Assembly (NCBI GenBank): GCA_016214555.1
Contig: JACROF010000012.1
Location: forward strand, 203,485 to 267,484
DNA length: 64,000 bases
Direction of reading: 5' to 3'
From: Candidatus Levyibacteriota bacterium
GTDB lineage: Bacteria > Patescibacteriota > Microgenomatia > Levybacterales > UBA12049
A model generated the notes under the pieces. It was not told the origin of the DNA, ran no database searches, and saw only the letters and a list, made by a program, of their open reading frames with translations. Each line of letters begins with the position of its first letter. Position 1 is the first letter of the stretch. A program made the position numbers and the translations under genes. Positions 25,460 through 64,000 of the stretch are shown here, one piece after another.

Positions 25460-26221
25460 GTGAAGAATATTTACCTCTCTGTTGTCATTCCGTGTTATAA
25501 CGAAATGGCAAATCTCCGAAAGGGTGTCCTCAATAAAGTTGATTCATATCTCTCAAAAAAGAAATATTCATTCGAAGTTATTATTGTTGACGATGGATCA
25601 ACTGATGGAAGCGTCGACTTTATAAAAGATTTTGTTAGCGATCACAAAGAGTTCAAGTTTATTGCAAGCCACCACATGGGAAAAGCTGGTGCAGTTACAA
25701 CAGGAATGCTTGAGGCTAAAGGATCGTATAGACTTTTTTCAGACATGGATCAGGCTACCCCTATTGAGGAGATTGATAGCCTACTGCCATATTTTGATAA
25801 GGGATATAACATCGTTATTGGTTCACGCAGTAACAGAAGAGAGGGATCCCCTTTAATTAGGCAATTTATTTCAAGAGCTCAGGTAATTTTGAGAAAAGGG
25901 ATCGTGGGATTGCATGGAATTTCAGATACGCAGTGTGGATTTAAAATGTTTGAAGGAGAAGTCGCTGAGAGACTTTTTTCCGCAATCAAAAGTATTCATC
26001 ATGGATTTAAGAAAATTAGCGGATCCAACGTAACATCAGGATTTGATATTGAGCTTTTATATATCGCTGAGAAAATGAACTATTCTATAATGGAGGTGCC
26101 TGTCCATTGGCTTTATGTCGAGACCAGAAGAGTTAACCCAATTAAAGACTCACTCCAAGGCGTTTCTGATCTGATCCAGATAAAGCAGAATGCACTTGCG
26201 GGGAAGTATTCAAAGGCATGA
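25460..26221 (+). CDS. GT2 polyprenol-phosphate sugar synthase (DPM1/GtrB/CsbB-like glycosyltransferase)
   Basis: LSVVIPCYNE, IIVDDGSTDGS, DMDQ (DxD) and IVIGSR....QCGFKMF motifs are typical of dolichol/undecaprenol-phosphate hexosyltransferases. First gene of the supercluster. Confidence 0.85.
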   Translation: MKNIYLSVVIPCYNEMANLRKGVLNKVDSYLSKKKYSFEVIIVDDGSTDGSVDFIKDFVSDHKEFKFIASHHMGKAGAVTTGMLEAKGSYRLFSDMDQATPIEEIDSLLPYFDKGYNIVIGSRSNRREGSPLIRQFISRAQVILRKGIVGLHGISDTQCGFKMFEGEVAERLFSAIKSIHHGFKKISGSNVTSGFDIELLYIAEKMNYSIMEVPVHWLYVETRRVNPIKDSLQGVSDLIQIKQNALAGKYSKA

Positions 26222-27432
26222 GCTCTCAACAAGAAATCATCAGGCCATCACACCCACAAAAATTTTTTGAAAGACTTTTGATTTTTTTGTCTTTACTTCT
26301 TTTTCTTTATTCTTTTACTCAGGTTGATCTTGGATTGACCCTTACAAGAGCATCAATTTTTGCAACAATACAGCACGCGTTTCAGTACATAGGGTTTTTT
26401 AACCGTCCTTTGTCAACTTTTCTTTTGACTATTCTTATCATTGGATTTACGACTACTTATTTTATGTATTTGCTTTTTATCAAAAGACAACCTGTTTCAA
26501 AGGCGCATCTTTGGAGAACCATTTTTATAGTTAGCGGTGTTCTTGCGCTATCCTACACCGCCTTTTCTTACGATATTTTTAATTATATTTTTGATGCAAA
26601 AATTATTACTTTTTACCATCAAAATCCTTATCTTCACAAAGCTCTTGATTTCCCTGGTGATCCAATGCTTTCATTTATGCACTGGACACACAGGACTTAT
26701 CCTTATGGTCCATTTTGGTTAGGTATTTCTTTGCCATTTTCTTATATAGGACTGCAATTTTTTCTTCCAACCTATTTTCTTTTTAAAGGACTTGCATTGA
26801 TGGGATACTTACTTACTGTCTATTCAATAAGTCGCATTCTTCAAATGGTATCACCAAAACATGAGACGTTAGGAATTGCCTTTTTCGCTTTAAATCCTCT
26901 AGTTCTTATTGAGTCACTTGTTTCAGGCCACAACGATATAGCCATGATGGGAGTGGGAATGTTTGGATTCCATCTTTTTTTGAAGAAAAAATACTTTCTA
27001 AGCTTCATTATTCTTATTTTTTCAGCTGGAATAAAATTTGCAACAGGATTTATTATTCCATTATTTGCGCTGCTTTATGTTTTCAGGCGGAAAAACACCC
27101 AATTTTCTTGGGAGAGCATATTTTTTAGCCTTCTAATAGCTATGATTGCTTCTTTTGGCGCAATGATGATCAGATCTGGCCAATTTCAACCGTGGTATTT
27201 GTTGGTAATACTTCCTTTTGCATCACTTCTTTCAAGACATCGATATGTTCTTATTCCATTTTTTATTATTAGTTTTGGGGCGCTTCTTAACTATTTACCG
27301 TATTTTTATAGTGGGAATTGGGATGATCCCATTCCATCTATCCTTTTGCAAATCAATAGTATTACTTTGCTTATGGCGTGTATTAGTGGGGTAGTGTTCT
27401 ACCTCAGAGATAAAAAAATTGATACTAGGTAG
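26218..27432 (+). CDS. Polytopic membrane protein, putative GT-C-type glycosyltransferase (unclassified)
   Basis: ~11 predicted TM helices; ATGA-type 4-nt overlap with the upstream GT2 synthase gene. No confident family assignment. Confidence 0.4.
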   Translation: MSSQQEIIRPSHPQKFFERLLIFLSLLLFLYSFTQVDLGLTLTRASIFATIQHAFQYIGFFNRPLSTFLLTILIIGFTTTYFMYLLFIKRQPVSKAHLWRTIFIVSGVLALSYTAFSYDIFNYIFDAKIITFYHQNPYLHKALDFPGDPMLSFMHWTHRTYPYGPFWLGISLPFSYIGLQFFLPTYFLFKGLALMGYLLTVYSISRILQMVSPKHETLGIAFFALNPLVLIESLVSGHNDIAMMGVGMFGFHLFLKKKYFLSFIILIFSAGIKFATGFIIPLFALLYVFRRKNTQFSWESIFFSLLIAMIASFGAMMIRSGQFQPWYLLVILPFASLLSRHRYVLIPFFIISFGALLNYLPYFYSGNWDDPIPSILLQINSITLLMACISGVVFYLRDKKIDTR

Positions 27433-27448
27433 TATATAATTATTTTAG

Positions 27449-28963
27449 ATGAAATTTATAAAAAAAAATAAAAAATATATCCTCCTTGTCGCAATTATTA
27501 TTGTTGTTTATTTTTTAACACGCCTTGTAGCAATTAACAGTCTACCAATATTTACTGATGAAGCAATTTATCTTAGGTGGTCACAGATTGCCCTTCATGA
27601 TGCAAATTGGAGATTTATTTCTCTAACAGACGGGAAGCAGCCTCTTTTCATCTGGTTTGTGATGTTAGCTATGAAATACATCGAAGACCCTCTTATTGCA
27701 GGGAGAGTGGTATCAGTAATTGCCGGTTTTTTTACCTTGATAGGATTGTATTTTTTAGGTTCAGAAGTGTTCTCAAACAAAAAAATAGGATTACTTTCAT
27801 CTTCCCTTTATCTTTTGTATCCTTTTGCTTTGGTTTATGACAGGATGGCACTCTATGATAGTCTTGTTGGAACATTTGCGGTGTGGGCTTTGTTTGGCGC
27901 TATAAAACTCGTACGAAACCAACGTTTTGATACGGCAATGCTATTGGGTTTTGTGACTGGGGGAGCCGTATTGAACAAAACAAGTGGGTTTCTTGCCTTG
28001 TATCTTCTTCCATTCCTTTTGGTTCTCATGCCTGTCAAGGAGATAAAGAATGTCAAAAGAGTTGCTAGATTTATCCTAATGTGTGCCGTTGTGGCAGTTA
28101 TTACTTATGGGTGTTATGCCATCTTAAGACTGTCTCCATTCTTTTATATTATTGAACAGAAAAACGCTCTTTTTGTATATCCTTTTCATGAGTGGATAAA
28201 ACATCCTTTTACTTTTTTTATTCCAAATATCCGAGCGCTTTTTGACTGGTATCTTCATTATGTTGGATTACCAATGTCGCTTCTTGTTTTAGGGTCATTT
28301 TTGGTTTCAAAGTCATATTTTCGAGAAAAGATACTGCTTTTTCTATGGTTTTTTCTCCCATTTTTGGCGTTGGCACTTACAGGTAAGACTCTTTATCCTA
28401 GGTACATATTTTTTATGACACTTTTTCTTTTACCACTCTGTGCATATACTCTCATATTTTTATATGAAAAATTATCTAGGAAGGCATACTACTCCGTTGG
28501 TTTTCTTGCTATCATTTATTGGGTAATTTCATCAGGGATGGTGATAACTCAGTTTCAAAACGCACCGATTCCTAAATCAGATATTCAGCAGTATCTGACC
28601 TCATGGACATCGGGGGAGGGAGTGAGTGAAGCAATTAAATTTTTTAGAGAGAGGTCAAAAGATAATAAAATATTTGTTGGGACACAAGGTACATTTGGGT
28701 TGATGCCTTATGCATTAGAGTTATACCTTGTTGATGATCCTCAGATAGAAATGAAGTCATATTGGCCAGTTGATAATGTTTTTTTGAGAGATATACAAAA
28801 GAAAACTTTAGAGAAAGAGTCCTATGTACTTTTCTATGAAGGTTGTCCAAGCTGTCCAAGCAATGGGATTGCGCCTACTGATTGGCCTCTTGAAAAAGTA
28901 TTCCAACTAAAAAAAATTGAGCCATATACATACCTGACAATTTATAAAGTTATTCCACAATGA
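27449..28963 (+). CDS. GT-C membrane glycosyltransferase, ArnT/PMT-like (GT39/GT83-type)
   Basis: N-terminal TM then a first-loop DE motif (PIFTDEAIYLRW) characteristic of ArnT/PMT-family GT-C enzymes. ~11 TM followed by a soluble C-terminal domain. Confidence 0.6.
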   Translation: MKFIKKNKKYILLVAIIIVVYFLTRLVAINSLPIFTDEAIYLRWSQIALHDANWRFISLTDGKQPLFIWFVMLAMKYIEDPLIAGRVVSVIAGFFTLIGLYFLGSEVFSNKKIGLLSSSLYLLYPFALVYDRMALYDSLVGTFAVWALFGAIKLVRNQRFDTAMLLGFVTGGAVLNKTSGFLALYLLPFLLVLMPVKEIKNVKRVARFILMCAVVAVITYGCYAILRLSPFFYIIEQKNALFVYPFHEWIKHPFTFFIPNIRALFDWYLHYVGLPMSLLVLGSFLVSKSYFREKILLFLWFFLPFLALALTGKTLYPRYIFFMTLFLLPLCAYTLIFLYEKLSRKAYYSVGFLAIIYWVISSGMVITQFQNAPIPKSDIQQYLTSWTSGEGVSEAIKFFRERSKDNKIFVGTQGTFGLMPYALELYLVDDPQIEMKSYWPVDNVFLRDIQKKTLEKESYVLFYEGCPSCPSNGIAPTDWPLEKVFQLKKIEPYTYLTIYKVIPQ

Positions 28964-30633
28964 GATTGAATAAAAAGTTTATTGCAGGTTTAATACTAGT
29001 GCTTTTATTTCTCTCTCTTCCTCTGATTGCGCCTTTTTTTCAAAAAGGATATTTTACAACGCACGATGGTGAATGGGCAGTTGTGCGACTTGCCGATATG
29101 TACCGTGAAGTAAGAGATGGTCAGATCCCCCCGCGCTTTAGCGGAAATCTTAATAGCGGTTATGGGTACCCTCTTTTTCAATATGCTTACCCAATGCCTT
29201 ATTATTTGGGTTTAGTGTTGTATCTTTTCCAAATAGGGTTGGTAGATAGCATCAAGATTCTTTTTGCATCAACTGTATTTCTGTCAGGGGTAGCAATGTT
29301 TTTTTTATCACGAAGTCTTTGGAAATCAAACATCGCTGGTATTGTAAGTGCAATATTGTATATGTATGCACCTTATCGCCTTGTAGATTTGTACGTGCGA
29401 GGATCGATTGGTGAGTCAATAGCCTCAGTATTTTTCCCATTAATATTACTTACCATGCTCTCCTTAAGAGAGAGAATAACGCCAGTAAGAGTTGTACTAC
29501 TTTCACTGCTTACTGCCTCACTTGTCCTAACACATAATATTATGGCAGTTCTCTTTCTTGTCATTATCTTGGGATTTTTCATCTATTTTTTAATAGAAAA
29601 GGATTTTTTAACAATAAAAGCAAGTCTTATCGGGATTGTTGGAGGATTTATGCTCTCTGCCTATTTCTGGATCCCAGCGTTACTTGAAAAAAAGTATATT
29701 TTGCTTTCCATAATTCCTATTGCTGATAGAAGCCTGCATTTTGTTTCGCTTAATCAGTTGATTCTGCCAACGTGGGGATATGGCACGCCAACTGATCCAG
29801 ACGCCTTTACATACCAGATTGGACTTGCGCATATTTTTGTAGTCTTCTTGATTGGTGTAACATTTTTTCTTAAAAAGAAAGACTTGATGAGAAATATTAC
29901 AACTTTGTTTTTTATTCTTATTTCAGTTTTTTTATTTTTAATGTTCCCCTTATCAAAAGTTATTTGGGAGAACACTCCACTGCTTCATGAAATTAATTAC
30001 CCATGGACCTGTTTGATGCCTATTATTTTTTTATCTAGTATTATTGCAGGGAAAACAGCTATCACCAATTTTTTTCCACTGCAGAAAATAATAGTTGGAA
30101 TAGCATGTGTTGCTGCAATTTTTTTTGGAATTACATATGCCCGTCCTAACAAAATTGTCGATAATGGAGATGGGTTTTATTTTACAAATGATGCAACAAC
30201 AACATCATCAAAAGAATTGATGCCATTATGGGTCAAGGATATACCACAGGTTAGACCTAAAAATAAAATTGAAATTATAAAAGGGATAGGTAATATTTCA
30301 CCACTTCATATCACATCGCATAAGGCACTTTTTGAAACTGATCTTAAAACAGATGCAATTATACGGTTTAATACTATTTATTTTCCACAATGGGAATGGA
30401 AGGTTGATGGAAAAAATACTCCATACTCATACAATAATAGAGTCGGAGTAATGGATGCACATTTTACAAAAGGGCATCACAACATCTCAATAGTGCTAAG
30501 AGATACACCCATACGAATCATTTCAAATAGCATTAGCTTTGTGACATTTGTTGTTTTTGTGTTTGTCATAGTAGTGAGATTTTTAGAACTTTTTTTAAAA
30601 AGACGAATATTGATTTTTCCATATAAGTTATGA
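28960..30633 (+). CDS. YfhO-like GT-C membrane glycosyltransferase, short paralog family A (1 of 4)
   Basis: Conserved N-terminal TTHDG..H..R and FSGNLNSGYGYPLFQYAYP motifs, YVRGSIGE motif, and C-terminal YFPQWEWKVDGK..-type motif (YxPGW..VDG) shared with the 749-aa YfhO-like protein at 46562. Family name is tentative. Confidence 0.5.
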   Translation: MRLNKKFIAGLILVLLFLSLPLIAPFFQKGYFTTHDGEWAVVRLADMYREVRDGQIPPRFSGNLNSGYGYPLFQYAYPMPYYLGLVLYLFQIGLVDSIKILFASTVFLSGVAMFFLSRSLWKSNIAGIVSAILYMYAPYRLVDLYVRGSIGESIASVFFPLILLTMLSLRERITPVRVVLLSLLTASLVLTHNIMAVLFLVIILGFFIYFLIEKDFLTIKASLIGIVGGFMLSAYFWIPALLEKKYILLSIIPIADRSLHFVSLNQLILPTWGYGTPTDPDAFTYQIGLAHIFVVFLIGVTFFLKKKDLMRNITTLFFILISVFLFLMFPLSKVIWENTPLLHEINYPWTCLMPIIFLSSIIAGKTAITNFFPLQKIIVGIACVAAIFFGITYARPNKIVDNGDGFYFTNDATTTSSKELMPLWVKDIPQVRPKNKIEIIKGIGNISPLHITSHKALFETDLKTDAIIRFNTIYFPQWEWKVDGKNTPYSYNNRVGVMDAHFTKGHHNISIVLRDTPIRIISNSISFVTFVVFVFVIVVRFLELFLKRRILIFPYKL

Positions 30634-32303
30634 AAAAAATACTTTGGCCGATTATCATTCTTTGTATAGGAGTAGTAACTATTTTTCCATTATTTCATAG
30701 TGAATATTTTCCAATGCATGATAATACGCAGGTCTCTAGAGTTTCTCAGATGGCGTTATCTTTGTCAGAAGGAGCTTTTCCCGTCAGGTGGGTGAATGAC
30801 CTTGGCTATGGATATGGTTATCCTATTTTTAATTTTTATGCACCTTTTGCTTATTATGTAGGAGCGTTTTTTGTATTGTTTGGTATTAATTCTCTTATGG
30901 CTACTAAAATAATGTTTGGCATTGGGATGATATCGGCTGGTCTTTCTATGTATTTTTTGTCAAAATCTTTTTTTGGTAAAAATGCAGCAATCTTGTCATC
31001 ACTGCTTTATCTGTTTTTTCCCTACCATGCTTCGTTGTTGTATGTGAGAGGTGCTATTGGAGAGTTATTTGCTTATGGTTTTTTGCCATTGCCATTTTTG
31101 GGATTATGGCAACTGTATAAAACAGGAAAATTTAGGTATGTAATTTTGTTTGCTTTAGGATATGGAGGAATTATTATCTCACACAATCTTTCAGCGCTCA
31201 TGATAACCCCATTTATTGTTCTTGCTTGCGTATTATTGTCAGCTATTTTGTATAAAAAGAAACAAATAAGAGTAATTCTTATGATTTTTTCGGGTTTGGT
31301 ACTTTCAATACTCTTGTCATCATGGTATGTGGTTCCTGCGATTTTTGAAATGAAATTTACAAATATCTCATCAATTCTTGGGGGTGGATCAAATCCTCTT
31401 GATCATTTTGTATGTCTTAAACAGTTTTGGTCAGGACCTTGGGGTTTCGCAGGATCAACAAAAGGATGTATGGACGGCATGTCATTTGTAATAGGTAAAG
31501 TTCACGTCCTTGTTTTGGTGATTGGATTATTAACATTTGCTTACTCGCATCGATTGAAGGATAAAGAGAAAAAAGGTCTTTTATTTTTCTCGTTTTTTCT
31601 CATTTTGCTTTCTGGATTTCTTATGACTGACATGTCTTCTTTTATATGGAAGGAAATTTCTTTTCTTCACTATATTCAGTTTCCTTGGAGGTATTTATCC
31701 TTTATAGCTTTGGGTGTTGCAGTGATTGGAGGATCAATAGTATTTTTCCTTGAAAGATATCACAAGAGAAGTGCTTTCTTTTTTATATTCTTGTTTGTTT
31801 TTCTTACTGTTTTTTACAATAAGCATTATTTTATGCCTCAATATTTTTGGAGTAACGATAAAGCAGTGAGTTATTTTTCTGATACAAAATGGACAGTATC
31901 AAAAATTTCTGATGAGTATTTGCCAAGAGATTTTATCAAGCCTAAAAATAGAGATGAAATACCAAAAGAGCTAGTTAAAAACCAGCAAATTCTGAAAAAT
32001 TTTGAAATAATAGCTAACTCTGTTTATAAAAAGGAATTTATCATAGATCTTGATAGACAAACGATTATTCAAATTAACACTGCGTATTTTCCAGGATGGC
32101 AATTGTCAATTGATGACAGGAGGGATGTAAAAGGTTTTCAAAAAAATGGTATCTTTGTACTACCTCTCTCTGAGGGAGTTCATCATATAGAATTAAATTT
32201 TAAACAAACTCCTCTTGAGAGATACTCAAATTATCTTTCTTTATTAGGTATAATCATAGTACTTGCTGGGATATTGCACTCAAGAAAGGAAAAATATTTA
32301 TAG
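30630..32303 (+). CDS. YfhO-like GT-C membrane glycosyltransferase, paralog family A (2 of 4)
   Basis: FPMHDN...VRWVNDLGYGYGYPIFNFYAP, YVRGAIGE, C-terminal YFPGWQLSIDD. Tandem with 28960 (4-nt overlap). Confidence 0.5.
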   Translation: MKKILWPIIILCIGVVTIFPLFHSEYFPMHDNTQVSRVSQMALSLSEGAFPVRWVNDLGYGYGYPIFNFYAPFAYYVGAFFVLFGINSLMATKIMFGIGMISAGLSMYFLSKSFFGKNAAILSSLLYLFFPYHASLLYVRGAIGELFAYGFLPLPFLGLWQLYKTGKFRYVILFALGYGGIIISHNLSALMITPFIVLACVLLSAILYKKKQIRVILMIFSGLVLSILLSSWYVVPAIFEMKFTNISSILGGGSNPLDHFVCLKQFWSGPWGFAGSTKGCMDGMSFVIGKVHVLVLVIGLLTFAYSHRLKDKEKKGLLFFSFFLILLSGFLMTDMSSFIWKEISFLHYIQFPWRYLSFIALGVAVIGGSIVFFLERYHKRSAFFFIFLFVFLTVFYNKHYFMPQYFWSNDKAVSYFSDTKWTVSKISDEYLPRDFIKPKNRDEIPKELVKNQQILKNFEIIANSVYKKEFIIDLDRQTIIQINTAYFPGWQLSIDDRRDVKGFQKNGIFVLPLSEGVHHIELNFKQTPLERYSNYLSLLGIIIVLAGILHSRKEKYL

Positions 32304-33019
32304 TGAAAAAATTACCTGAATTGACAATTTTTTTCCCGTTTTGGAATGAAGAGAAAAACATAGCTGAAATTGTTCATAACGCCGTTGATATTATTCCAAC
32401 TGTTGCTGAAAAATTTGAGATACTTATAGTCGATGACGGGTCACTTGATGGTACGCTTAGGATTGCAAATGAGTTGGCAGAAAAATATCCCTATATTAGA
32501 GTAATTAGCCACAACGTGAATAGGGGATATGGTGCAGCGTTAAAATCAGGCTTTGAAAATGCAAAATATGACTATATTATTTTTACTGATGGGGATTTGC
32601 AGTTCAACCTACATGAAATTACAAAATTCACCGAGAATATTCACAAAGCAGATATGGTGATTGGGTATCGAAGAAAGAGGAAGGACAATAAAATAATTAA
32701 AAGATTGCTACTTATGAATCTATTAAAAATTTGGGATTTTGTTTTGTTTGGGTTCCATTTTAAAGACATTGATTGTGGTTTTAAAATGTTTACAAGGCAT
32801 GCACTTGAGGCTATTGGACCTCTTAGGTCAGAGGGAGCAATGGTTACAACAGAAATATTGGCAAAAGCTAGGAAGAAAAAACTAAAGATAATACAAGTTG
32901 GCGTTGAGCATTTCCCACGTGTTTATGGAGAGCAGACTGGGGCAAATATCTTCGTTGTTGTAAGGGCAATTCTAGAGAGTATGACACTTTTTATGGATAT
33001 TAAAAGCAAGAGGTTTTAA
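32303..33019 (+). CDS. GT2 polyprenol-phosphate sugar synthase (DPM1/GtrB-like), second copy
   Basis: ILIVDDGSLDGT, FTDGD (DxD), IGYR....DCGFKMF motifs. Confidence 0.85.
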   Translation: MKKLPELTIFFPFWNEEKNIAEIVHNAVDIIPTVAEKFEILIVDDGSLDGTLRIANELAEKYPYIRVISHNVNRGYGAALKSGFENAKYDYIIFTDGDLQFNLHEITKFTENIHKADMVIGYRRKRKDNKIIKRLLLMNLLKIWDFVLFGFHFKDIDCGFKMFTRHALEAIGPLRSEGAMVTTEILAKARKKKLKIIQVGVEHFPRVYGEQTGANIFVVVRAILESMTLFMDIKSKRF

Positions 33020-34471: not shown

Positions 34472-34472
34472 T

Positions 34473-35399
34473 ATGGCGAAACTTTCAGTAGTGATTTCTG
34501 TACTAAATGGTGCTGCGGTTATAGAGGATTGTTTAAAGTCTGTTGAGTGGGCAGATGAGATTATTGTTGTGGATCATGAGTCAACAGATGGAACACTCAA
34601 GATTGTTAAAAAATATACAAATGATATTTTTTCTCAACCTAACGACATTACAAAAATTGATATTCAAAAAAACTTTGGATTTAAGAAAGCAAAACATGAA
34701 TGGATTTTAAGCATTGATGCTGATGAACGAATAGACGATGAATTACAAAAAGAAATAAAGGAAGTTATTGAACACATGTATCAAGATGCATATGCTATTC
34801 CTCGTAAAAATATTATTTTTGGGAAATGGATAAAGCACTCAATCTGGTGGCCTGATTATCAAATAAGACTTTTTCGAAAGGGTAGAGCAGAGTACGTTGA
34901 TGCAGTTGTTCACAAAGATATCCAGGTGAAAGGGACAGTAGGAAAGCTAACAAATCCTCTTACGCATGAAAATTATCAGACGGTCAGTCAGTACCTTCAA
35001 AAAATGGATGTATATACCGAAAGCGAGGCTCTTTCATTTATCAAAAACAACACCCATTTTTCGTGGATTGAGGCTGTGAGGATGCCTATAGGTGATTTTT
35101 TAAAAACATTTTTTTTCCAAAGGGGATATAAAGATGGGTTTCATGGCTTAGTACTAAGTGTGCTTCAGGGTTTTTATATGTTTTTGGTAGTTATAAAAGT
35201 ATGGGAGAAGCAAGGATTTAGAGAGGAAAACGATAAGCATTTCTTAAAAAATCTTTTGCGTGAATGGGAAAGGTATCAAAAGGAAGTTTCTTATTGGTTT
35301 ATGGTTTCATTTATTCAATCATCAGGAAATTTTATTGAAAAAATTCCCTACAGGCTAAAAAGAAAGTATCTTGATCAAAAATTAAAAAAAGAGTTTTAA
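34473..35399 (+). CDS. GT2 family glycosyltransferase (Glyco_tranf_2 'DADE' type), paralog 1 of 3
   Basis: LSVVISVLNG, IIVVDHESTDGT, ILSIDADE motifs. Paralogous to 44430 and 58492. Confidence 0.8.
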   Translation: MAKLSVVISVLNGAAVIEDCLKSVEWADEIIVVDHESTDGTLKIVKKYTNDIFSQPNDITKIDIQKNFGFKKAKHEWILSIDADERIDDELQKEIKEVIEHMYQDAYAIPRKNIIFGKWIKHSIWWPDYQIRLFRKGRAEYVDAVVHKDIQVKGTVGKLTNPLTHENYQTVSQYLQKMDVYTESEALSFIKNNTHFSWIEAVRMPIGDFLKTFFFQRGYKDGFHGLVLSVLQGFYMFLVVIKVWEKQGFREENDKHFLKNLLREWERYQKEVSYWFMVSFIQSSGNFIEKIPYRLKRKYLDQKLKKEF

Positions 35400-45191: not shown

Positions 45192-45194
45192 ATA

Positions 45195-56443: not shown

Positions 56444-56445
56444 AT

Positions 56446-58446
56446 ATGGCCCATTTTTCTTTCTTAAGTTTTTATTTCCCTCTGTATTTAACCTTGTTTT
56501 TTGTTGCAGCATATGTTTCATTTTATTTACCAGGAGCCTTAGTTTTATCAAATAAAAAATATAGTACTGGATTAAAGATTCTTTTGCCGCTAGTTATTGG
56601 TATCGTCCTTTGGGGGTTCCAAGGGTATATTTTTGGCTATCTCCATTTACGTTTTCTCACATATTTATATTTGTTTTTTGTTCTCATTTTTTCTTTAAAA
56701 AAGAAAATAATCACCACTGAAATTATTAAGGAGAGTTTTACTTGGATTAAAAGAAACATTTTTCCAGTAGTTGCAATTATTATTTTGGTCATACTTCAGC
56801 TAACTCCAATTTTTACATCTGGTATGCTTTATTTTGATGGTGTAAGGTTTATAGGGGTAAACTCAACTGATGGGGTTATGCACTTAGCATTTATCCAAAG
56901 TATAGCTCATTATTTTCCTCCAATAGAACCCGGTTCATACGCAAATCCACTGACAAATTATCATTACTGGTCTGATCTTATTATGGCAGAGATTGTGCGT
57001 ATTTGGAAAATACCTGTTGCAAATGTATTTTTTCAATTTTTTCCGATGGTGTTATCTGTACTAACAGCTATTTCTGCATATCAATTGGTTCGACAACTTG
57101 GATTTTCATCAAAAGCAGGGTATTGTGCAATTTTTTTACTATTTTTTGGTGGTGATGCAACATACGTTTTGATGATGTTTTTTAGACATGAATTAACATT
57201 TTCCACCCCGGTTATTGATAATGGCATGACGCAATTTCTTAATATGCCAAACGCATTTGCACGACCAATTTTTATTACTGGAATTTTAACTTTTTATCTA
57301 TGGTTGAAAGAAGCAAAGATATTTTGGGGAATTATTACTGTGTTAATTTTCGCAAGTCTTTTTGGTATAAAGATATACTATGGTATTTTCGTTCTAATAG
57401 GTTTTAGCTTTGTTTTGTTATACAAATGTATTGAAGGTCTAATTAATAAGCAGTGGAATATTATCAAAGTTGCGAAAGACATCCTTCGTAGTTATTTACC
57501 TTTTTATTTAGTTTTTATTTTTGTATCTTTTGCAATTTATTTTCCACCAAATAAAATGTCGGGAGGTCTTGGGTGGTACCCATTAGAGTGGCCTAAAATT
57601 TTTCTTGGCTCAGAAGTGCTCAATTGGGGAGATTGGTGGCTTCGTCACCAGGTTTATGAACAGGCCAACAATATAAAAGGCATCCTTTTTTTAGATACTG
57701 TAGCCATAGTAATAGCATTGATATCAATTCATGGGACACGACTTCTAGGTTTTTTTTCTCTATTAGAAGTGCGTAAAATAAGTCCAGCCATGCTCTTTTT
57801 CTTAGGTCCTGCAATAATTATTTTTCATGTTTTTGGGTTATTTACTCTCCAATCTTCAGGTGGATTAAATGTATTTAATTTTTTTGTAGTAACTACAGTA
57901 ATACTAAGTATCATGCTTGCAATGGGAATCGACCTATTTTTTGTTAATAGGAAAAAAATACAAATCGCTTTTGTAATTATAATCACCTTGTTAACAGTGC
58001 CAAGAGCGCTGACAGAGATAGTTGGATATTCAGACTCATCATACAATCCAAAAAAATATCATCTGATTTCAAATGATGAAGTTGAAGCATTTGAGTATAT
58101 TAGAAAAAATACAAAACAAGATTCAATTATTCAATCTCATCCTGTAAATCCAGTTGATGCTGAGACGCCATATGTTTCGTATTTTTCAGATAGATTTTCC
58201 TATTTATCAGGAGTTAGATTGCAAATAACTCATAACCAACCTGTTGGAAAAAGAAGTAAAGAGATGCATACCCTTTTTTCATCTACTGATTCTCCAACCT
58301 TTTTCGCAAAAGCAAAAGAATATAACTTAGATCTAATATATATACAAAAAAATGTAGAACAGAAATTAAAATTCTTTCCTGATAAAAATTTAATAAAACC
58401 AATTTTTGAGAATAATTCTGTCATTGTATATAAAATTTCTGAATAA
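56446..58446 (+). CDS. Polytopic membrane protein (666 aa), unclassified (GT-C/polymerase-like)
   Basis: ~14 TM with a large extracytoplasmic C-terminal domain. No confident family. Confidence 0.35.
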   Translation: MAHFSFLSFYFPLYLTLFFVAAYVSFYLPGALVLSNKKYSTGLKILLPLVIGIVLWGFQGYIFGYLHLRFLTYLYLFFVLIFSLKKKIITTEIIKESFTWIKRNIFPVVAIIILVILQLTPIFTSGMLYFDGVRFIGVNSTDGVMHLAFIQSIAHYFPPIEPGSYANPLTNYHYWSDLIMAEIVRIWKIPVANVFFQFFPMVLSVLTAISAYQLVRQLGFSSKAGYCAIFLLFFGGDATYVLMMFFRHELTFSTPVIDNGMTQFLNMPNAFARPIFITGILTFYLWLKEAKIFWGIITVLIFASLFGIKIYYGIFVLIGFSFVLLYKCIEGLINKQWNIIKVAKDILRSYLPFYLVFIFVSFAIYFPPNKMSGGLGWYPLEWPKIFLGSEVLNWGDWWLRHQVYEQANNIKGILFLDTVAIVIALISIHGTRLLGFFSLLEVRKISPAMLFFLGPAIIIFHVFGLFTLQSSGGLNVFNFFVVTTVILSIMLAMGIDLFFVNRKKIQIAFVIIITLLTVPRALTEIVGYSDSSYNPKKYHLISNDEVEAFEYIRKNTKQDSIIQSHPVNPVDAETPYVSYFSDRFSYLSGVRLQITHNQPVGKRSKEMHTLFSSTDSPTFFAKAKEYNLDLIYIQKNVEQKLKFFPDKNLIKPIFENNSVIVYKISE

Positions 58447-58491
58447 TACTGAGTTCTGGAAATAATGTAGTTATTTCTCTACAATGGTACT

Positions 58492-59262
58492 ATGCAATCA
58501 TTATCAGTCGTCTTGGCTACATTTAATGAAGAGGAGAATATCGGAAAGTGCTTAAATTCCATAAGAGATATAGCTCAAGAAATAGTTGTAGTTGATGGAA
58601 CGTCTTCTGATAGAACAGTAGAGATTGCAAAAAGATATGGGGCAAAGGTTTATATCACTGAAAATAAGCAAAATTTCCATATTAACAAACAAATGGCAAT
58701 TGACAATGCAACCAAAAGTTGGATACTGCAACTTGATGCCGACGAAGTTGTGTCTAAAAGTCTACAAAGTGAAATTGAACAAAAAATTCAAATTAAAAAT
58801 AACGAAATACATGGATACTGGATGCCGAGAAAAAATTGGTTTTTAGGCAAATTCTTGACAAAAGGTGGTCAGTACCCTGACTATACACTGCGACTTTATC
58901 GAAAAGGCAGCGGAAGACTTCCACAAAAAGATGTTCATGAACAAGCAGTGGTTGAAGGAGAAACAGAGTACTTAACTCATCCGCTTCTACACTATCCCTA
59001 TAAAGATTTTAAACATTATTTTCAAAAATGGATAAGATATGTCGATCTCACATCATCGCAGATCAGGGTACAAAAAGATTTTTTTACAATAAAAAAATTT
59101 ATTTCCTATCTTTTCGTATTGCCAATGTATTGGTTTTTTCTTATTTACCTAAGACATAAGGGATTTGTAGATTTATGGCCTGGATTTCTTTTTGCATTTT
59201 TTTCTGCTCTTCGTTATCCGACTTCGTATCTACGCGCACTTTTTCTCAATGAAAAAAAATAA
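58492..59262 (+). CDS. GT2 family glycosyltransferase ('DADE' type), paralog 3 of 3
   Basis: LSVVLATFNEE, IVVVDGTSSDRT, ILQLDADE motifs. Confidence 0.8.
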   Translation: MQSLSVVLATFNEEENIGKCLNSIRDIAQEIVVVDGTSSDRTVEIAKRYGAKVYITENKQNFHINKQMAIDNATKSWILQLDADEVVSKSLQSEIEQKIQIKNNEIHGYWMPRKNWFLGKFLTKGGQYPDYTLRLYRKGSGRLPQKDVHEQAVVEGETEYLTHPLLHYPYKDFKHYFQKWIRYVDLTSSQIRVQKDFFTIKKFISYLFVLPMYWFFLIYLRHKGFVDLWPGFLFAFFSALRYPTSYLRALFLNEKK

Positions 59263-60715
59263 AAAAAGATTTTTTACTTGGATCAAAGATCCACTACGTG
59301 TTGTTTTATTAGTGATTTTTATAGGTGGAGTTTTTTTTCGATTTGCAAATACTCCTGACAAGTTTGGATTTGATAAAGACCCAACAAGAGACGCTCTTAT
59401 TGCAATACATATATCTGATAATTTTGCTTTTCCTCTCGTAGGGCCACATTCAGGAATTGGATCTTTTAGTTTTGGACCGTGGTATTACTATGATTTGGGC
59501 CTATTTAGAATTTTGACTGCGAAATTAGTTCCGCCATTTTATTTTATCCCACTTTATTCAATATTTTTTATTCTTGGGATGTATTTTCTGGGTAAAGAGT
59601 TAAAAGATGAAAAGTTAGGGGTTATTCTTGCAGGTCTTGCTGCTTTTACTCCGGCCCAAACGGGTCCAATTACAGGATTAAGCAATCCAAATCTTATTCC
59701 TGTTCATGCAGTGTTAAGTGTTCTATATTTCGTTTTTTTACTTAAAAACAAGCTAACAGCAAAAAAATCATTACTCTGGGGACTGGTAATGGGGGTAGGC
59801 ATAAATCATCATTATCAAATGCTTCCTTTAATGATTCTCCCTCTCATAGGATTTTTTGTTAAAAGAGAAAAAAAAGTAATTTTTTTGTTTTTTCTTACTT
59901 TTTTTATTTCATTTATCCCTTTTATAATTTTTAATATATTAACGAACTGGTCATCATTTTTTGGGTTAATTAAATATCTTGGTGAGGGAGGTGTATATAT
60001 TCCTAATAGTTGGGTAATTTACTTACGAGATTTTTGGCCTTTATATTTGGAGAATGTAGTCGGGTTAAATTCCAAGATAAGCCTACTTTTGTATTTAATT
60101 GTGATATTATTTCACTTTGTTCTTCTGATAAAAAAAAGGTTATCTAGAGAATATTTACTTCTGCTACTTGTTGGATTTATTTTATTCGTTCACCTTCGTT
60201 ACTTTAAAGGAACAAGGGAATATTATTACATGTTTTATTTTCTTCCTTTCATTCTTTTATATCTTGGAATGTTTTTGAGGAGTTTGTTAGATTTTAAAAA
60301 AGGATTTTCTGTTTTCATTTTTATTTGTGTCATTCTCTTTGCTAACTCTATTCCGGTTAATATTTCAAAATTATCAAGTAGAATAGATCAAAAAGAATCT
60401 TATGAAAACGCTAAATTATTGAGTAACTACTCATTTGGAAAAAAAATTTCACTTTATTCATGTAAAGAGCACTCAATAAATATTGCTGAGGGCACAGTAT
60501 ATTTTTTGTATACAATGAAAAAACTTGGTGATCAAACTAGAGTTATATATACAGGTAAAATGAATGAGTGCCAAATCCCAAAAAAAAGTAAAAGTGTTAC
60601 AGAGAACTTTTATGACGTCTCAAGCTTTAATGATCGTGAAATTAAGGAATTAGGTTGGAGAAGCATATCCCCCGAAGCAATTTATCATGAAACAACAGAG
60701 TGGTGGAAGTATTAG
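59249..60715 (+). CDS. Polytopic membrane protein (~489 aa), possible GT-C-type glycosyltransferase
   Basis: Start placed at MKKNKKRFF (14-nt overlap with the upstream stop). The ORF-track start at 59192 would overlap the GT2 gene by 70 nt and encodes a non-hydrophilic leader. ~11 TM. Confidence 0.4.
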   Translation: MKKNKKRFFTWIKDPLRVVLLVIFIGGVFFRFANTPDKFGFDKDPTRDALIAIHISDNFAFPLVGPHSGIGSFSFGPWYYYDLGLFRILTAKLVPPFYFIPLYSIFFILGMYFLGKELKDEKLGVILAGLAAFTPAQTGPITGLSNPNLIPVHAVLSVLYFVFLLKNKLTAKKSLLWGLVMGVGINHHYQMLPLMILPLIGFFVKREKKVIFLFFLTFFISFIPFIIFNILTNWSSFFGLIKYLGEGGVYIPNSWVIYLRDFWPLYLENVVGLNSKISLLLYLIVILFHFVLLIKKRLSREYLLLLLVGFILFVHLRYFKGTREYYYMFYFLPFILLYLGMFLRSLLDFKKGFSVFIFICVILFANSIPVNISKLSSRIDQKESYENAKLLSNYSFGKKISLYSCKEHSINIAEGTVYFLYTMKKLGDQTRVIYTGKMNECQIPKKSKSVTENFYDVSSFNDREIKELGWRSISPEAIYHETTEWWKY

Positions 60716-60768
60716 TTGACAAGAAACATTCTGTTTGCGATCTCTTATTTTTTTGATACAATTATCAA

Positions 60769-61743
60769 ATGGCCGTATTGGTTACAGGTGGTGCAGGATA
60801 TATTGGAAATTTTATGACAAGACGTCTCCTTGATGATGGAGAAGAGGTAGTCGTAATAGATTCACTTGAACGGGGACATATCGAGTCATTGGACAAAAGA
60901 ATAACTTTTCTAAAAGGCACTTTACTTGATAGATCCTTTTTGAAAGAAGCATTTATCCAGCATTCAATATCTGCTGTCATTCACTTCGCAGGGTATATCT
61001 CAGTCGCAGAGTCTGTTAAAAAACCAAGCGCGTATATTACCAATAATGTAATAGCAACGCTTAACTTGCTTGACGAGATGATAAATGCGCAGGTGAACAA
61101 GATTGTATTCGCCTCTACAGCTGCAGTATACGGTAATCCAACAAAAATACCTATTCCTGAAGATCATCCAAAGAATCCAGAAAGCCCTTATGGAGATAGT
61201 AAATTGATGGTTGAGAAGATTTTCCATTGGTATGAGAAGGCGAATGGACTAAGGCATGTTACTCTTAGATTTTTTAATGCATCGGGAGCAGCTCTAGACG
61301 GAAGCATGGGAGAAGATCATCAACCAGAAACGCATATTATTCCCAATGCAATTCTTGCTGCAATTAATAAAACACCTTTTACTCTCTATGGAAAAGACTA
61401 TGATACGCCAGATGGGACGTGTATTAGAGATTATATCCACGTGTTGGATCTCGCTCAGGCTCATATTCTTGCATTGAAAAAGATTTCAGAATTTCCTGGT
61501 GGATATCAATATAATGTAGGAACAGGAAAAGGCTACTCAAATAAAGAGGTTGTCGAGATGGTAGAGAAGGTATCCGGTGAGAAAATGAATATAGTATTTC
61601 ATGAAAGAAGGCCTGGAGACTCAGATAAATTGATTGCCGATCCTTCAAGAATATTTAGTGAATTATCATTTAAGCCTCAATATTCTGATCTTGAGACTAT
61701 TGTTTCTTCTGCTTGGAAATGGCATACAAGAGATAGGAGATGA
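60769..61743 (+). CDS. galE: UDP-glucose 4-epimerase (NAD-dependent epimerase/dehydratase, GalE-like)
   Basis: VLVTGGAGYIGNF Rossmann motif; catalytic YGDSK (YxxxK); S/T upstream; 324 aa. Confidence 0.8.
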   Translation: MAVLVTGGAGYIGNFMTRRLLDDGEEVVVIDSLERGHIESLDKRITFLKGTLLDRSFLKEAFIQHSISAVIHFAGYISVAESVKKPSAYITNNVIATLNLLDEMINAQVNKIVFASTAAVYGNPTKIPIPEDHPKNPESPYGDSKLMVEKIFHWYEKANGLRHVTLRFFNASGAALDGSMGEDHQPETHIIPNAILAAINKTPFTLYGKDYDTPDGTCIRDYIHVLDLAQAHILALKKISEFPGGYQYNVGTGKGYSNKEVVEMVEKVSGEKMNIVFHERRPGDSDKLIADPSRIFSELSFKPQYSDLETIVSSAWKWHTRDRR

Positions 61744-61816
61744 CCTCAATCCGCAAATTAAAATATTCCCTTAAAACCTCTTCAAATTTATACTCTTATC
61801 AACGTATAATACGTAT

Positions 61817-62869
61817 ATGAGGATAGCTATCGATGTTTCACCTTTAGAATCTGGTCACAAGATAAGAGGGGTAGGTTTTTACCTTAAGAATTTAAAAGAT
61901 TCTCTTGAGACATATTTTCCAACGAATACTTACACATACTTTACTGGTAAATTGCCTGGTGGAGTATTTGACGTAATACATTATCCATATTTTGATCCAT
62001 TTTTTGTATCATTGCCTTTTTTCCATTCGTATCCAGTTGTGGTTACTGTTCATGACCTGACACCAATTATTTTTCCAAGTGAATTTCCTGCAGGAGTAAG
62101 AGGAAGCCTTAAATGGAGGATGAACAAATTTTTACTTTCAAAAGCAGACATTATTATTACAGATTCTGATTCTTCAACGAAAGATGTTTCTAAATTTGTT
62201 CGTATAGCATCTTCAAAAGTGAAGACAGTGACCTTAGCAGCAGGTAAAGAATTTCATCCTTTAAAAAAGGTATCACCACTTTTTAAGAATCTGCAAAAAA
62301 AATATGATTTGCCTGAAAAATTTGTAATGTATGTTGGAGATGTTACATGGAATAAAAACCTTCCAAGACTTTGTAAGGCAGTAATCGACTCGAATGTTCC
62401 TCTTGTTATGGTTGGAAAAGCGATAACAGACAAAGATTTTGATGAAGCAAATCCTTGGAATAAAGATAGGGTGTTAATGCATAATCTTATAAAAAATAAT
62501 TCATTATTTTTCCCAGTTGGATTTATTTCAACAGAGGATTTAAATATACTTTATAACAAGGCATCTGCACTGGTTATGCCGTCTCTCTATGAAGGTTTTG
62601 GGCTTCCTGTAGCTGAGGCAATGCAATCTGGGTGCCCTGTGATAACAAGTCGAGAAGGTTCTTTGTCTGAGGTTGGTGGTGAAGCGGTATTGTATGTTGA
62701 TGCATATTCTCAGGACAGTATTTCAGCTGGGATTAAAAAGGTGTTTAACTTAGAATCTTTGCAACACGATCTTTCTAAAAAAGGTATTGTCCAGTCCAAA
62801 AAATTTTCATGGAAAATAACAGCAGAGAAAACATTAAAAGCATACGAGTTAGCTCTGAAGGAAGCATGA
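61817..62869 (+). CDS. GT4 family (GT-B) glycosyltransferase
   Basis: C-terminal PSLYEGFGLPVAEAMQSGCPVITS.....EVGG E-x7-E signature. Confidence 0.8.
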   Translation: MRIAIDVSPLESGHKIRGVGFYLKNLKDSLETYFPTNTYTYFTGKLPGGVFDVIHYPYFDPFFVSLPFFHSYPVVVTVHDLTPIIFPSEFPAGVRGSLKWRMNKFLLSKADIIITDSDSSTKDVSKFVRIASSKVKTVTLAAGKEFHPLKKVSPLFKNLQKKYDLPEKFVMYVGDVTWNKNLPRLCKAVIDSNVPLVMVGKAITDKDFDEANPWNKDRVLMHNLIKNNSLFFPVGFISTEDLNILYNKASALVMPSLYEGFGLPVAEAMQSGCPVITSREGSLSEVGGEAVLYVDAYSQDSISAGIKKVFNLESLQHDLSKKGIVQSKKFSWKITAEKTLKAYELALKEA

Positions 62870-64000
62870 AAGATAAAGTTATTAGCCTTGCAAAACATCC
62901 TCTGATAACCGGGAGTAGTATTGTGTTTCTCGGCACTTTTGGATCAAATATTGTTAATTATATCTTTAATCTTTTAATGGGAAGAATGCTATCTGTCTCT
63001 GACTATGGCCTCCTAACATCGCTTAATTCACTTTTTATTTTAGTAGGAATTTTTAGTGTGTCATTTGTTAGCGTTATTACAAAATTTTCTGCAAAATATT
63101 TTAGTTCAAATGATAACAATGGAGCTGTAATACTCCTCAGACATGCGGGAAAATTTATCGTTATCTTTTCAAGCTTACTGTTTTTGACTTTATTATTATT
63201 GACTCCACAAATTGGATCATTTCTCCATATCTCAAACCATCTATATATTGTCCTTGTTTTAATATCGATATTTTTTTCCTTAATGTTCTCTCTACCATTG
63301 GGTTTTATTCAGGGACGATTGCAATTTTCTCTTTACTCAGCCATTGCACTTGCTCAACCTCTTATTAGATTAATAGCTGCCATACTATTTATTTCGATAG
63401 GATTTTCTGTTTTGGGTCCGATTATCGGTATTGCTCTTTCGACGGCTCTCCCTGCAATCGCTTGCTTTATTTATCTAGGAAAAAAATATCGTCAGGTTGA
63501 TAAGGAAAAATTTGATACTAAAAATTTCAAAAAAGAGTTCATTCATTATACATACACTTATTTTTTGGCTGGAATTGGGCTCTCGCTTCTATCTAACACC
63601 GATATTATTCTTGTCAGACATTTTTTTGATTCTACTATTGCAGGACAATATGCGGCATTATCATTGATGGGTAAAGCCATTTTTTATTTTACTAGTCCAA
63701 TAAGTATTGTTTTTTTTCCTATAATTGCGTATAAAAAAGAGAGAAAAGAACGACTCCTTCAAACCGTTCTCTTGGCTGTTGGATCGGTAGTGATCTCATC
63801 TGGGGTTCTTACCTTTATTTATTTTGCATTTCCTGATCTTGTTCTAAGAGTGTTTTTTCCCAAGCCAAATTATGCAATTCTCAGTGAGTATTTAGGATAT
63901 TATTCACTTTATATTCTAATTTTTTCTGTTGGCGCACTCATGAATAGCTACTTCCTGTCGATCGGAAAAACAAAAGTGTATCTTATAACACTTATTGGAG
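62866..64000 (+). CDS. Wzx-like flippase / polysaccharide biosynthesis membrane protein (3' partial, runs off window)
   Basis: ATG at 62866 overlaps the upstream stop (ATGA). Open reading frame continues to the window end with >10 TM helices. Not in the ORF track because no stop is reached. Confidence 0.6.
   Translation, partial: MKDKVISLAKHPLITGSSIVFLGTFGSNIVNYIFNLLMGRMLSVSDYGLLTSLNSLFILVGIFSVSFVSVITKFSAKYFSSNDNNGAVILLRHAGKFIVIFSSLLFLTLLLLTPQIGSFLHISNHLYIVLVLISIFFSLMFSLPLGFIQGRLQFSLYSAIALAQPLIRLIAAILFISIGFSVLGPIIGIALSTALPAIACFIYLGKKYRQVDKEKFDTKNFKKEFIHYTYTYFLAGIGLSLLSNTDIILVRHFFDSTIAGQYAALSLMGKAIFYFTSPISIVFFPIIAYKKERKERLLQTVLLAVGSVVISSGVLTFIYFAFPDLVLRVFFPKPNYAILSEYLGYYSLYILIFSVGALMNSYFLSIGKTKVYLITLIG

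Follow-up and report, generated by a model that had tools for sequence, protein, structure and literature searches.

A Levyibacteriota locus encoding fifteen predicted GT-C glycosyltransferases and its possible role in envelope glycan assembly

Layout and extent of the locus

The stretch of DNA analysed here, which we call the window, comprises 64,000 nucleotides from the genome of a groundwater Candidatus Levyibacteriota bacterium (assembly GCA_016214555.1, contig JACROF010000012.1), and its part from position 25460 to the window edge at 64000 is occupied by a dense array of glycosylation genes. The ORF listing, the Pfam scans and the gene table give 30 genes in this region, 27 on the + strand and three on the − strand, in keeping with the count of about 30, 27 of them on the + strand, in an earlier reading made from the DNA alone (hereafter the sequence-only reading), and the coding density is 98.9%. 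Fifteen of the genes encode large polytopic proteins, which together take up 25.2 kb (65% of the region) and which we assign, from sequence families and predicted folds, to the GT-C class of membrane glycosyltransferases (GTs). These are accompanied by GTs of families GT2 and GT4, by two flippases of the Wzx type and by an epimerase, all of them component types that are already known. Genes are named below by their first coordinate, and lie on the + strand unless marked (−).

Many neighbouring genes are joined by 4-nt ATGA start/stop overlaps, as had been noticed before, and ten of these are true overlaps (at 26218, 28960, 30630, 37695, 43516, 44430, 46562, 48778, 53054 and 62866). The junction 30630/32303 is a 1-nt overlap, and at the junction 32303/33020 the gap is 0 nt. 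The single operon-like array that the sequence-only reading had proposed could not be upheld, because three minus-strand genes (35396-35983, 39414-41012 and a DUF5652 gene at 45195-45431) interrupt it and split the region into at least four transcription units. Gene calls and sequence together indicate that two of the genes likely start at 46562 and 59249, and not at 46532 and 59192.

The left border at 25460 is well placed, since a terminator-like hairpin at 24719-24742, the only strong one, closes the gene preceding the locus, and the base composition changes close by. The GC content falls from about 0.40 upstream to 0.32-0.35 from around 26000 onward, and that of third codon positions (GC3) from 0.32 upstream to 0.28 and 0.25 in the locus, a drop that the soluble enzymes show too. 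Such low values are typical for surface-glycan loci and are compatible with a separate evolutionary history. Towards the right, the Logan contig SRR12113407_171173, identical to the window (no mismatches over the 17.5 kb compared), extends the locus by at least 8.9 kb beyond 64000, to window-equivalent position 72869 or further, with the end still not reached. The order of genes past 64000 is Wzx (421 aa), GT2, GT4, GT2, GT2, an AsnB-type amidotransferase, a methyltransferase, GT2, a DegT aminotransferase and a second methyltransferase, so that the whole locus measures at least 47 kb.

Promoter-like and terminator-like matches inside the locus do not exceed chance level. As there were also no tandem repeats, a claim of internal regulation or phase variation was dropped. 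Three homopolymers are present, A9 at 27460-27468 (codons 4-7 of the GT-C gene 27449), T9 at 39751-39759 (in 39414, minus strand) and G7 at 43728-43734 (in the GT2 gene 43516); tracts of this kind could permit slipped-strand switching, and their length is no greater than expected at 33% GC.

GT-C proteins, partner enzymes and related loci

At the sequence level, a protein was counted as GT-C when it belonged to a family of Pfam clan CL0111 (PMT, PMT_2, GT87, YfhO, PTPS_related and others). Nine of the 15 polytopic proteins pass a Pfam gathering threshold (26218 for GT87; 27449, 49740, 51435 and 53054 for PMT_2; 28960, 30630 and 39414 for PF10131; 46562 for YfhO), while three (36007, 37695 and 41822) are joined to these by BLASTP paralogy (1e-16 to 4e-49), one by profile–profile comparison and two by predicted fold. 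The sequence-only reading had counted at least 14 such proteins, and its suggestion that Pfam be used to check them led to no assignment to an unrelated transporter family. Transporters were rejected as an identity for these proteins, all sequence and fold matches being to GT-C and the Foldseek probabilities for transporters staying below 0.1.

All-against-all BLASTP revealed two groups of paralogs. Group A (26-31% identity over the full length) contains 28960..30633 (557 aa, 32.3 bits against a PF10131 cut-off of 26.4), 30630..32303 (557 aa, 39.3 bits; 1e-57 to 1e-59 to 28960 and 39414), 39414..41012 (−; 532 aa, 37.9 bits; 5e-63 to 28960) and, by paralogy, 36007..37698 (563 aa, with the motif TTFDN; 4e-49 to 28960 over the full length). 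PF10131 (PTPS_related) is a family of unknown function that is listed in the Pfam GT-C clan CL0111 (PMC7801869). According to BLASTP, the group A proteins have their C-terminal region in common with the YfhO-family protein 46562..48781 (739 aa from the ATG at 46562, 59.3 bits against a cut-off of 28.5). Group B (26-37% identity) is of the PMT_2 type, and is formed by 41822..43519 (565 aa; PMT_2 at 21.3 bits, below the cut-off, with 3e-53 to 49740 over the full length), 49740..51413 (557 aa, motif YWDEV; 31.3 bits and paralogy), 51435..53057 (540 aa; PMT_2 at 43.9 bits and PMT at 31.9 against a cut-off of 22.7) and 53054..54661 (535 aa, 47.4 bits). A distant member, 37695..39419 (574 aa), has no Pfam match and reaches group B through 51435 (1e-16 over 428 aa). 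The identities between paralogs range from 22 to 37% across the GT-Cs, which shows that the paralogs are old and did not arise by recent tandem amplification.

The remaining proteins with a Pfam assignment are 27449..28963 (504 aa, PMT_2 at 39.3 bits against 26.1, with FTDEA after the first transmembrane helix, TM1) and 26218..27432 (404 aa), which is GT87-like and resembles MptA and MptB. The latter barely exceeds the GT87 cut-off (25.5 bits against 25) and remains below those of NCBIfam for MptB (37.8 bits against 40) and for the MptA-type model TIGR03459 (53 bits against 439); its positional ortholog in the related locus L092 matches PF26314 (MptA_B_family). Neither MIR nor PMT_4TMC domains were matched by any locus protein in the Pfam scans, and only 51435 passes PF02366 (PMT).

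An acidic motif (DxD-like, DE or D) is found directly after TM1 in 14 of the 15 proteins, for example as WDE, THDG or YPDEFDN. In the remaining one, 56446, about four additional N-terminal helices precede the corresponding conserved motif, D-G-x-M-H (D142). These acidic loop motifs are invariant in the family alignments and are predicted to lie on the extracytoplasmic side.

Two of the proteins belong to families for which there is no Pfam model, and their assignment to GT-C comes from the predicted fold. The first, 54701..56443, carries an invariant H-E-x-Y-P-D-E-F-D-N after TM1 and is 100% identical to HZC02_04450 of a metagenome-assembled genome (MAG) labelled 'Candidatus Levybacteria bacterium'. 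The second, 56446..58446, ends in an alpha/beta domain, and hhalign of its family alignment against groups A and B gave no relation (about 1% probability). In all the related loci seen, the 56446 family is single-copy, and its models are structurally nearest to STT3/AglB/PglB, DPY19 and AftA, with a predicted AglB-like C-terminal domain; DPY19 and STT3/AglB/PglB, which are among the nearest Foldseek neighbours, are protein-modifying GT-Cs. We rejected an oligosaccharyltransferase identity for 56446, which has no STT3 match and no WWDYG motif. Both families are candidates for new CAZy GT-C families, one of them having about 1,900 representatives at 50% identity, and new GT-C families are still being founded, as in the case of GT136 (PMC11127046).

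The weakest of the 15 assignments is that of 59249..60715 (488 aa, about ten transmembrane helices), a probable GT-C that is distantly PMT_2-like. It had no Pfam match in our scans, a weak PMT_2 match exists in the precomputed annotation, and a profile of six orthologs aligned to group B in hhalign with 90% probability (E 1.5e-6, 167 columns), placing D44 on the DE motif. Profile searches of the Protein Data Bank (PDB) with the alignments of group A, 54701, 56446 and 59249 returned nothing meaningful, and the group B profile gave only a weak local match to STT3 among the PDB sequences.

Eight GT2 proteins are encoded in the region. Three of them, which are small (238-253 aa), are closer to polyprenyl-phosphate-sugar synthases than to any other GT2 of solved structure or any other NCBIfam model. 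PgfS, ArnC, AglJ and PpgS are among the top NCBIfam matches of these three, which is not the case for the other five GT2s, and their best solved relatives in the PDB are ArnC, PfDPMS (a DPMS structure) and GtrB. The protein 25460..26221 (253 aa; Pfam Glycos_transf_2, 88.9 bits; DMD motif, in the form DMDQ) has PgfS and ArnC as its top NCBIfam matches, each below its cut-off, and PfDPMS, GtrB and ArnC as its top structures. For 32303..33019 (238 aa, 102.5 bits, motif DGDLQ) the NCBIfam scores are 78.7 bits for PgfS, 70.5 for ArnC and 68.7 for AglJ, all below cut-off, and the best structures are ArnC (3e-15, residues 6-212) and PfDPMS (3.4e-14, residues 7-225). The third, 41083..41829 (248 aa, 133.5 bits, motif DADLE), is like a polyprenyl-phosphate-hexose synthase of the AglJ/DPMS kind; it reaches 123.7 bits with AglJ, below the cut-off, and its residues 10-245 align to 23-249 of the PfDPMS chain, stopping where the transmembrane domain of PfDPMS begins.

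The sequence-only reading had named these three proteins as polyprenol-phosphate sugar synthases of the DPM1/GtrB/CsbB kind. The similarity of the catalytic domains agrees with this proposal, but all three lack a hydrophobic segment, and the C-terminal transmembrane anchor of GtrB, CsbB and ArnC is not found. Lack of this C-terminal domain was one of the results that the sequence-only reading had named beforehand as refuting it, and the domain is absent in all three. On sequence, the three proteins thus stand outside the GtrB/CsbB architecture. A synthase function is not thereby refuted, because an anchor-less variant exists in the streptococcal GacI/J/K/L system, where the GT-A enzyme is cytoplasmic and its partners are a distinct small membrane protein, a flippase of the Wzx type and a GT-C (PMC8035078). 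We also note that the NCBIfam model for PpgS, a polyprenyl-phospho-GalNAc synthase, is 226 positions long. Each small GT2 gene is in contact with a GT-C gene, 25460 with 26218 by an ATGA overlap, 32303 with 30630 by 1 nt and 41083 with 41822 by an 8-nt overlap.

Both Wzx-like flippases of the sequence-only reading were recovered as MOP/Wzx proteins in Pfam. The first, 33020..34471 (483 aa; Polysacc_synt_3, 149.7 bits; 108 bits with the NCBIfam MOP flippase model, below its cut-off), directly follows 32303, an order that is kept in the related loci L092 and L094. The second, 62866..64000 (Polysacc_synt, 48.8 bits), is cut by the window edge and has 421 aa in full, a length taken from L086; placed among GT4 and GT2 genes, it looks like a classical oligosaccharide flippase. 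No match to a GtrA-type flippase was found anywhere in the window. In a comparable system, the one from which GT136 was founded, the flippase is of the MATE family (PMC11127046).

Where the sequence-only reading had counted about six further GT2 and GT4 enzymes, we found seven. The five GT2s are 34473..35399 (308 aa, one predicted transmembrane helix, 57.9 bits; a paralog of 44430 and 58492), 43516..44433 (305 aa, rhamnosyltransferase-like at best from Pfam and NCBIfam), 44430..45191 (253 aa, from the same two databases), 48778..49728 (316 aa, Pfam) and 58492..59262 (256 aa, Pfam), and the two GT4s are 45486..46565 (359 aa; Glycos_transf_1, 73.3 bits) and 61817..62869 (350 aa, Pfam). The UDP-glucose 4-epimerase GalE at 60769..61743 passes the equivalog cut-off of NCBIfam (TIGR01179, 400.5 bits against 262.3), in agreement with the sequence-only reading. 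A Wzx flippase, cytoplasmic GTs and sugar-nucleotide tailoring enzymes are therefore all present in the locus. In the region 25460-64000 and the 8.9-kb extension, in which the end of the locus is not reached, we found no initiating phosphoglycosyltransferase, Wzy/WaaL or LCP, and no match to the families Glycos_transf_4, Bac_transf and Wzy_C.

Two small minus-strand genes complete the region. That at 35396..35983 (−) encodes a 195-aa protein with one N-terminal transmembrane helix, which has no Pfam match even at E<5 and no counterpart in the related loci. The other, 45195..45431 (−), encodes a DUF5652 membrane protein of 78 aa (83.2 bits). DUF5652 proteins of 78-87 aa occupy the same position, between a GT2 and a GT4 gene and in opposite orientation, in all the related loci that extend over this point, namely in L085, L092 (8555-8812) and L094 (7643-7906). 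It is pure speculation that DUF5652 could, like GacJ, supply the anchor-less GT2s with a membrane partner.

Judged by the related loci, the window carries an enlarged version of a locus that is conserved in Microgenomates, and GT-C arrays recur in this lineage. In L081 and L083 (51-75% protein identity) we found the block YfhO, three PMT_2, 54701-like, 56446-like, GT2, 59249-like, GalE, GT4, Wzx, GT2 and GT4, L081 having an additional GT2 after YfhO. L092 (about 41% identity) is more compact, having about seven GT-Cs, with the order of the genes maintained and the minus-strand DUF5652 gene included; conservation of gene order thus extends to about 41% protein identity. The order PF10131, GT2 of about 242 aa and Wzx recurs in L092 and L094, and 30630-32303-33020 is, on comparative sequence grounds, the best-supported triad of the locus. 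In L094, where the sequence examined stops short of the left end, four GT-Cs can be seen, and at the downstream end of this syntenic locus lies a 1019-aa protein with a Wzy_C domain (19361-22013). In the more distant L093 the 56446 ortholog stands apart from the locus, and an LCP ligase gene (LytR_cpsA_psr, 15170-16246) lies beside PMT_2, GT2, MptA_B and PF10131 genes. The Wzy_C and LCP genes together give a hint of a polymerised, wall-attached product. They also qualify two negative statements of the sequence-only reading, that there is no classical Wzy/WaaL and nothing linked to peptidoglycan: both hold for the window only, since the locus runs past its edge and relatives carry such genes, Wzy_C in L094 and, in L093, LCP beside the same GT-C and GT2 families. 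In L095 (558-15530; Patescibacteria MAG GCA_964429365.1), nine GT-C genes follow one another in the order PMT_2, three without Pfam match (including a 54701-like one), PMT_2, YfhO, PMT, PMT_2 and PF10131, and GT-C arrays are therefore not unique to the window genome. The 76% relative L096, a low-coverage contig ridden with frameshifts, added little, and a scan of metagenome contigs with 39414 returned only relatives of 23-26% identity in unrelated contexts and yielded no synteny for the upstream half.

Upstream of the locus, the window carries genes for enolase, TypA/BipA, Lon, MgsA and a DEAH helicase as well as two tRNAs. The BipA protein shares 78% identity with a homologue from a Patescibacteria MAG and 76% with one from a Levyibacteriota MAG; many of its close relatives (70-76% identical), found among the Patescibacteria matches, come from third-party 'binchicken' MAGs titled 'uncultured Gammaproteobacteria bacterium', and these titles look taxonomically wrong. 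The gene at 14270-14974 (−) codes for a secreted, Cys-rich protein of 234 aa whose C-terminus consists of LPNTG followed by a hydrophobic stretch and a basic tail. This is a sortase sorting signal and implies a Gram-positive-like wall with covalently anchored proteins and a monoderm-like host; the protein is a possible target of glycosylation. A membrane acyltransferase at 365-1498 (−; Acyl_transf_3, 84 bits) adjoins a gene at 1525-2460 (+) for a secreted protein of 311 aa that has linkers rich in Pro, Thr and Ser and lacks any Pfam match, and this pair, 24 kb from the locus, could represent a glycan O-acetyltransferase and a candidate O-glycoprotein. Adjacent DUF4396 and DUF305 genes (16778-17690, −) and a low-molecular-weight phosphotyrosine phosphatase (15569-16003, −) are unrelated to the locus.

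A model for envelope glycan assembly and its alternatives

Given the GT-Cs, the synthase-like GT2s, the flippases and GalE, extracytoplasmic glycosylation of an envelope glycoconjugate, as put forward in the sequence-only reading, is the natural interpretation. In the form that we favour, with a probability of roughly 60%, the locus would direct the synthesis of a Wzx-dependent, lipid-linked envelope glycan that is extended outside the membrane by many GT-Cs drawing on few shared donors. Cytoplasmic GT2 and GT4 enzymes would assemble an oligosaccharide on a polyprenyl carrier, with the sugar nucleotides tailored by GalE and, past the window, by DegT, AsnB and the methyltransferases, and a Wzx-type MOP flippase would move the product to the outer face of the membrane. 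In parallel, 25460, 32303 and 41083 would load single sugars onto polyprenyl phosphate, and these lipid-sugar donors would be flipped, most likely by the Wzx-type protein adjoining 32303, as proposed for GacK. On the outer face, the 15 GT-Cs, which fall into at least six sequence families, would use the donors to extend and branch the glycan step by step. As final acceptor, a lipoglycan or a polysaccharide linked to the wall or the membrane is most likely, and some PMT_2 members may glycosylate surface proteins besides. Donor identity, the roles of the flippases, the order of action and the acceptor are deduced from the families of the proteins and the order of the genes.

A triad of GT2 synthase, flippase and GT-C, iterated many times, had been suggested before, but three synthases and two flippases stand against 15 GT-Cs, so a few donors would be common to many linkage-specific GT-Cs. 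This brings the scheme nearer to mycobacterial lipomannan, lipoarabinomannan and arabinogalactan assembly, or to the lumenal ALG steps, than to stacked modules of the gtr type. A polymer is favoured as acceptor because the group A proteins share a C-terminal region with YfhO, because a Wzx module is present, and because LCP and Wzy_C occur in the relatives; the external domain of YfhO is thought to bind polymer acceptors (PMC8035078).

Several observations weigh against the model. The equivalog-level NCBIfam scores of the GT2, GT4 and GT-C proteins are all far below their cut-offs, and no initiating phosphoglycosyltransferase, GtrA flippase, Wzy/WaaL or LCP turned up in the window or the 8.9 kb past its edge. 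In addition, the synthase-like GT2s have no membrane segment and no GacJ-like partner was found, the three minus-strand genes divide the locus into several transcription units, and some of the GT-Cs could be inactive or serve unrelated acceptors. A bolder version, which we regard as quite unlikely, is that bacteria of the Microgenomates type in the Candidate Phyla Radiation (CPR) possess an assembly line like that of the endoplasmic reticulum or of mycobacteria, in which up to 15 GT-Cs would build a large branched surface glycan central to episymbiosis, the two families without a Pfam model would contribute new activities and the 56446 family, as a transferase not recognised before, would move the finished glycan, or a priming sugar, to a protein or wall acceptor.

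Among the alternatives, we consider it unlikely, though deserving of attention, that the locus serves mainly protein O-glycosylation, with PMT_2/PMT GT-Cs loading Ser/Thr-rich secreted, pilus, S-layer or sortase-anchored proteins, in which case it would resemble the Pmt system of actinobacteria or the Pgf system of streptococci (PgfS, PgfM1, PgfE, PgfM2). Seven or eight of the 15 GT-Cs lie in or near PMT_2 and 51435 passes PMT (PF02366), but the bacterial PMT_2 members GtlB and GttB modify polymers (PMC8035078), so that a PMT_2 match is no proof of a protein acceptor, and the MIR and PMT_4TMC domains had no match in the Pfam scans. PgfS is the best NCBIfam match of both 25460 and 32303, GalE is present in the locus as PgfE is in Pgf, the 56446 model is nearest in Foldseek to DPY19 and STT3/AglB/PglB, and the window encodes the S/T/P-rich secreted protein at 1525-2460 as well as the LPNTG protein. 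Against these points, known protein O-mannosylation systems consist of one or two GT-Cs and not of fifteen, the four PF10131 proteins and YfhO share a type of C-terminal region that has been connected with polymer binding, and a full Wzx-type polysaccharide module is also part of the locus. This alternative and the next overlap with the favoured model and are not fully exclusive of it.

The locus could also be a diversity island, composed of independent alternative decoration modules like the serotype-converting gtr operons or the CsdAB/CD/EF pairs of L. lactis, which would vary one and the same surface polymer from strain to strain, for instance under phage or host pressure. L. lactis indeed has several GT-A/GT-C pairs working on one flippase (PMC8035078), but here three synthases face 15 GT-Cs, most of which would not be self-contained modules. 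The GC and GC3 values below those of the flanking housekeeping genes, extending to the soluble enzymes, would suit such an island, as would a GT-C copy number that goes from 15 here to about seven in L092 and four visible in L094, where the left end is cut. The paralogs are old, however (22-37% identity), gene order is kept to about 41% protein identity, the locus has no tandem repeats, and its Pfam scans show no transposase, integrase or mobile-element family; the short homopolymer tracts inside three genes, which might also be cited in its favour, are no longer than expected at 33% GC. Overall, we find this explanation decidedly unlikely. Glycosylation of teichoic acid in the CsbB-GtcA-YfhO manner, or modification of lipid A or another lipid as by ArnC-ArnT, is highly improbable. 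The protein 46562-48781 is a member of the YfhO family, but it is one of 15 GT-Cs, and the window showed neither a GtrA/GtcA flippase nor a gene of the TagF or LtaS type. The best solved relatives of the small GT2s include ArnC, and 51435 has a match to ArnT that is weak (E = 0.0016, 17 bits against a cut-off of 567), whereas the window carries an LPNTG sortase substrate and CPR bacteria are monoderm and lack lipopolysaccharide.

The types of parts are all known, and three features are unusual: the scale, with 15 GT-Cs packed into 38.5 kb although the genome is probably smaller than 1 Mb; the pairing of anchor-less synthases with flippases of the Wzx type in an organism that is not a streptococcus; and the presence of two sizeable GT-C families for which Pfam has no model. 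The genomes of CPR bacteria, or Patescibacteria, are very small, and a life in attachment to host cells is assumed for these bacteria, so that the chemistry of their surface is probably decisive for host recognition, for sensitivity to phages and for survival. A locus of at least 47 kb would correspond to about 6% of a genome sized like the complete Levyibacteriota chromosome (762,565 bp), and complex glycans assembled outside the membrane would, if the model is true, be a major investment of this lineage. A GT87 protein and three Dol-P-Man-synthase-like genes have already been noted in a Saccharibacteria genome (PMC6031116), and the literature searched contained no account of GT-C arrays from CPR bacteria. 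For heterologous reconstitution, the locus also supplies a concrete list of parts, with three predicted synthases of donors, the two flippases and the 15 GT-Cs.

Comparison with known systems

The closest parallel to the triad 30630-32303-33020 is the GacI/GacJ/GacK/GacL system for the side chain of the Lancefield group A carbohydrate, in which an anchor-less GT-A enzyme, a Wzx-type flippase and a GT-C act on a polymer outside the membrane (PMC8035078). At the level of genes, the trio has the same parts list, in tight packing. More broadly, the PMT_2 and YfhO families of GT-Cs are in use in Gram-positive multi-component systems (PMC8035078). The differences from Gac are nevertheless considerable, given that 15 GT-Cs are found here for three synthases and two flippases, with no GacJ-like partner identified and no genes seen for a rhamnan or teichoic-acid backbone. 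Four of the GT-Cs belong to PF10131 and two to Pfam-less families, and the organism belongs to the CPR, its genome being probably smaller than 1 Mb.

The side-chain systems that add pentofuranoses also act after polymerisation and outside the cytoplasm, rely on a flippase of the MOP superfamily and not on GtrA, and have an auxiliary epimerase in the locus (PMC11127046). Those systems, however, have three components, a polyprenyl-phosphoribose synthase, a MATE flippase and a GT-C of family GT136, and their donor synthase is PRPP (phosphoribosyl pyrophosphate)-dependent and not a GT2. With the lipid-linked oligosaccharide pathway of eukaryotes and archaea (cytoplasmic ALG GTs, MOP-like flippase, DPM1/ALG5, lumenal ALG3/9/12/6/8/10, STT3/AglB) the likeness is at the level of the fold, at 7-15% identity, and is one of analogy and not of membership. 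No protein here matches the Pfam STT3 family or carries the WWDYG motif, and nothing points to N-glycosylation.

In its overall logic, with donors shared among linkage-specific GT-Cs, the proposed system can be likened to the assembly of lipomannan, lipoarabinomannan and arabinogalactan in mycobacteria (Ppm1, PimE, MptA/B/C, AftA-D, EmbA-C). It differs from mycobacteria and corynebacteria in that the MptB and MptA scores of 26218 are below their cut-offs and no PimA/PimB', Emb or decaprenylphosphoryl-arabinose (DPA) pathway genes were identified. The mycobacterial GT-C genes for these glycans are spread over several loci of a genome that is several times larger, whereas all 15 GT-Cs described here are gathered within 38.5 kb.

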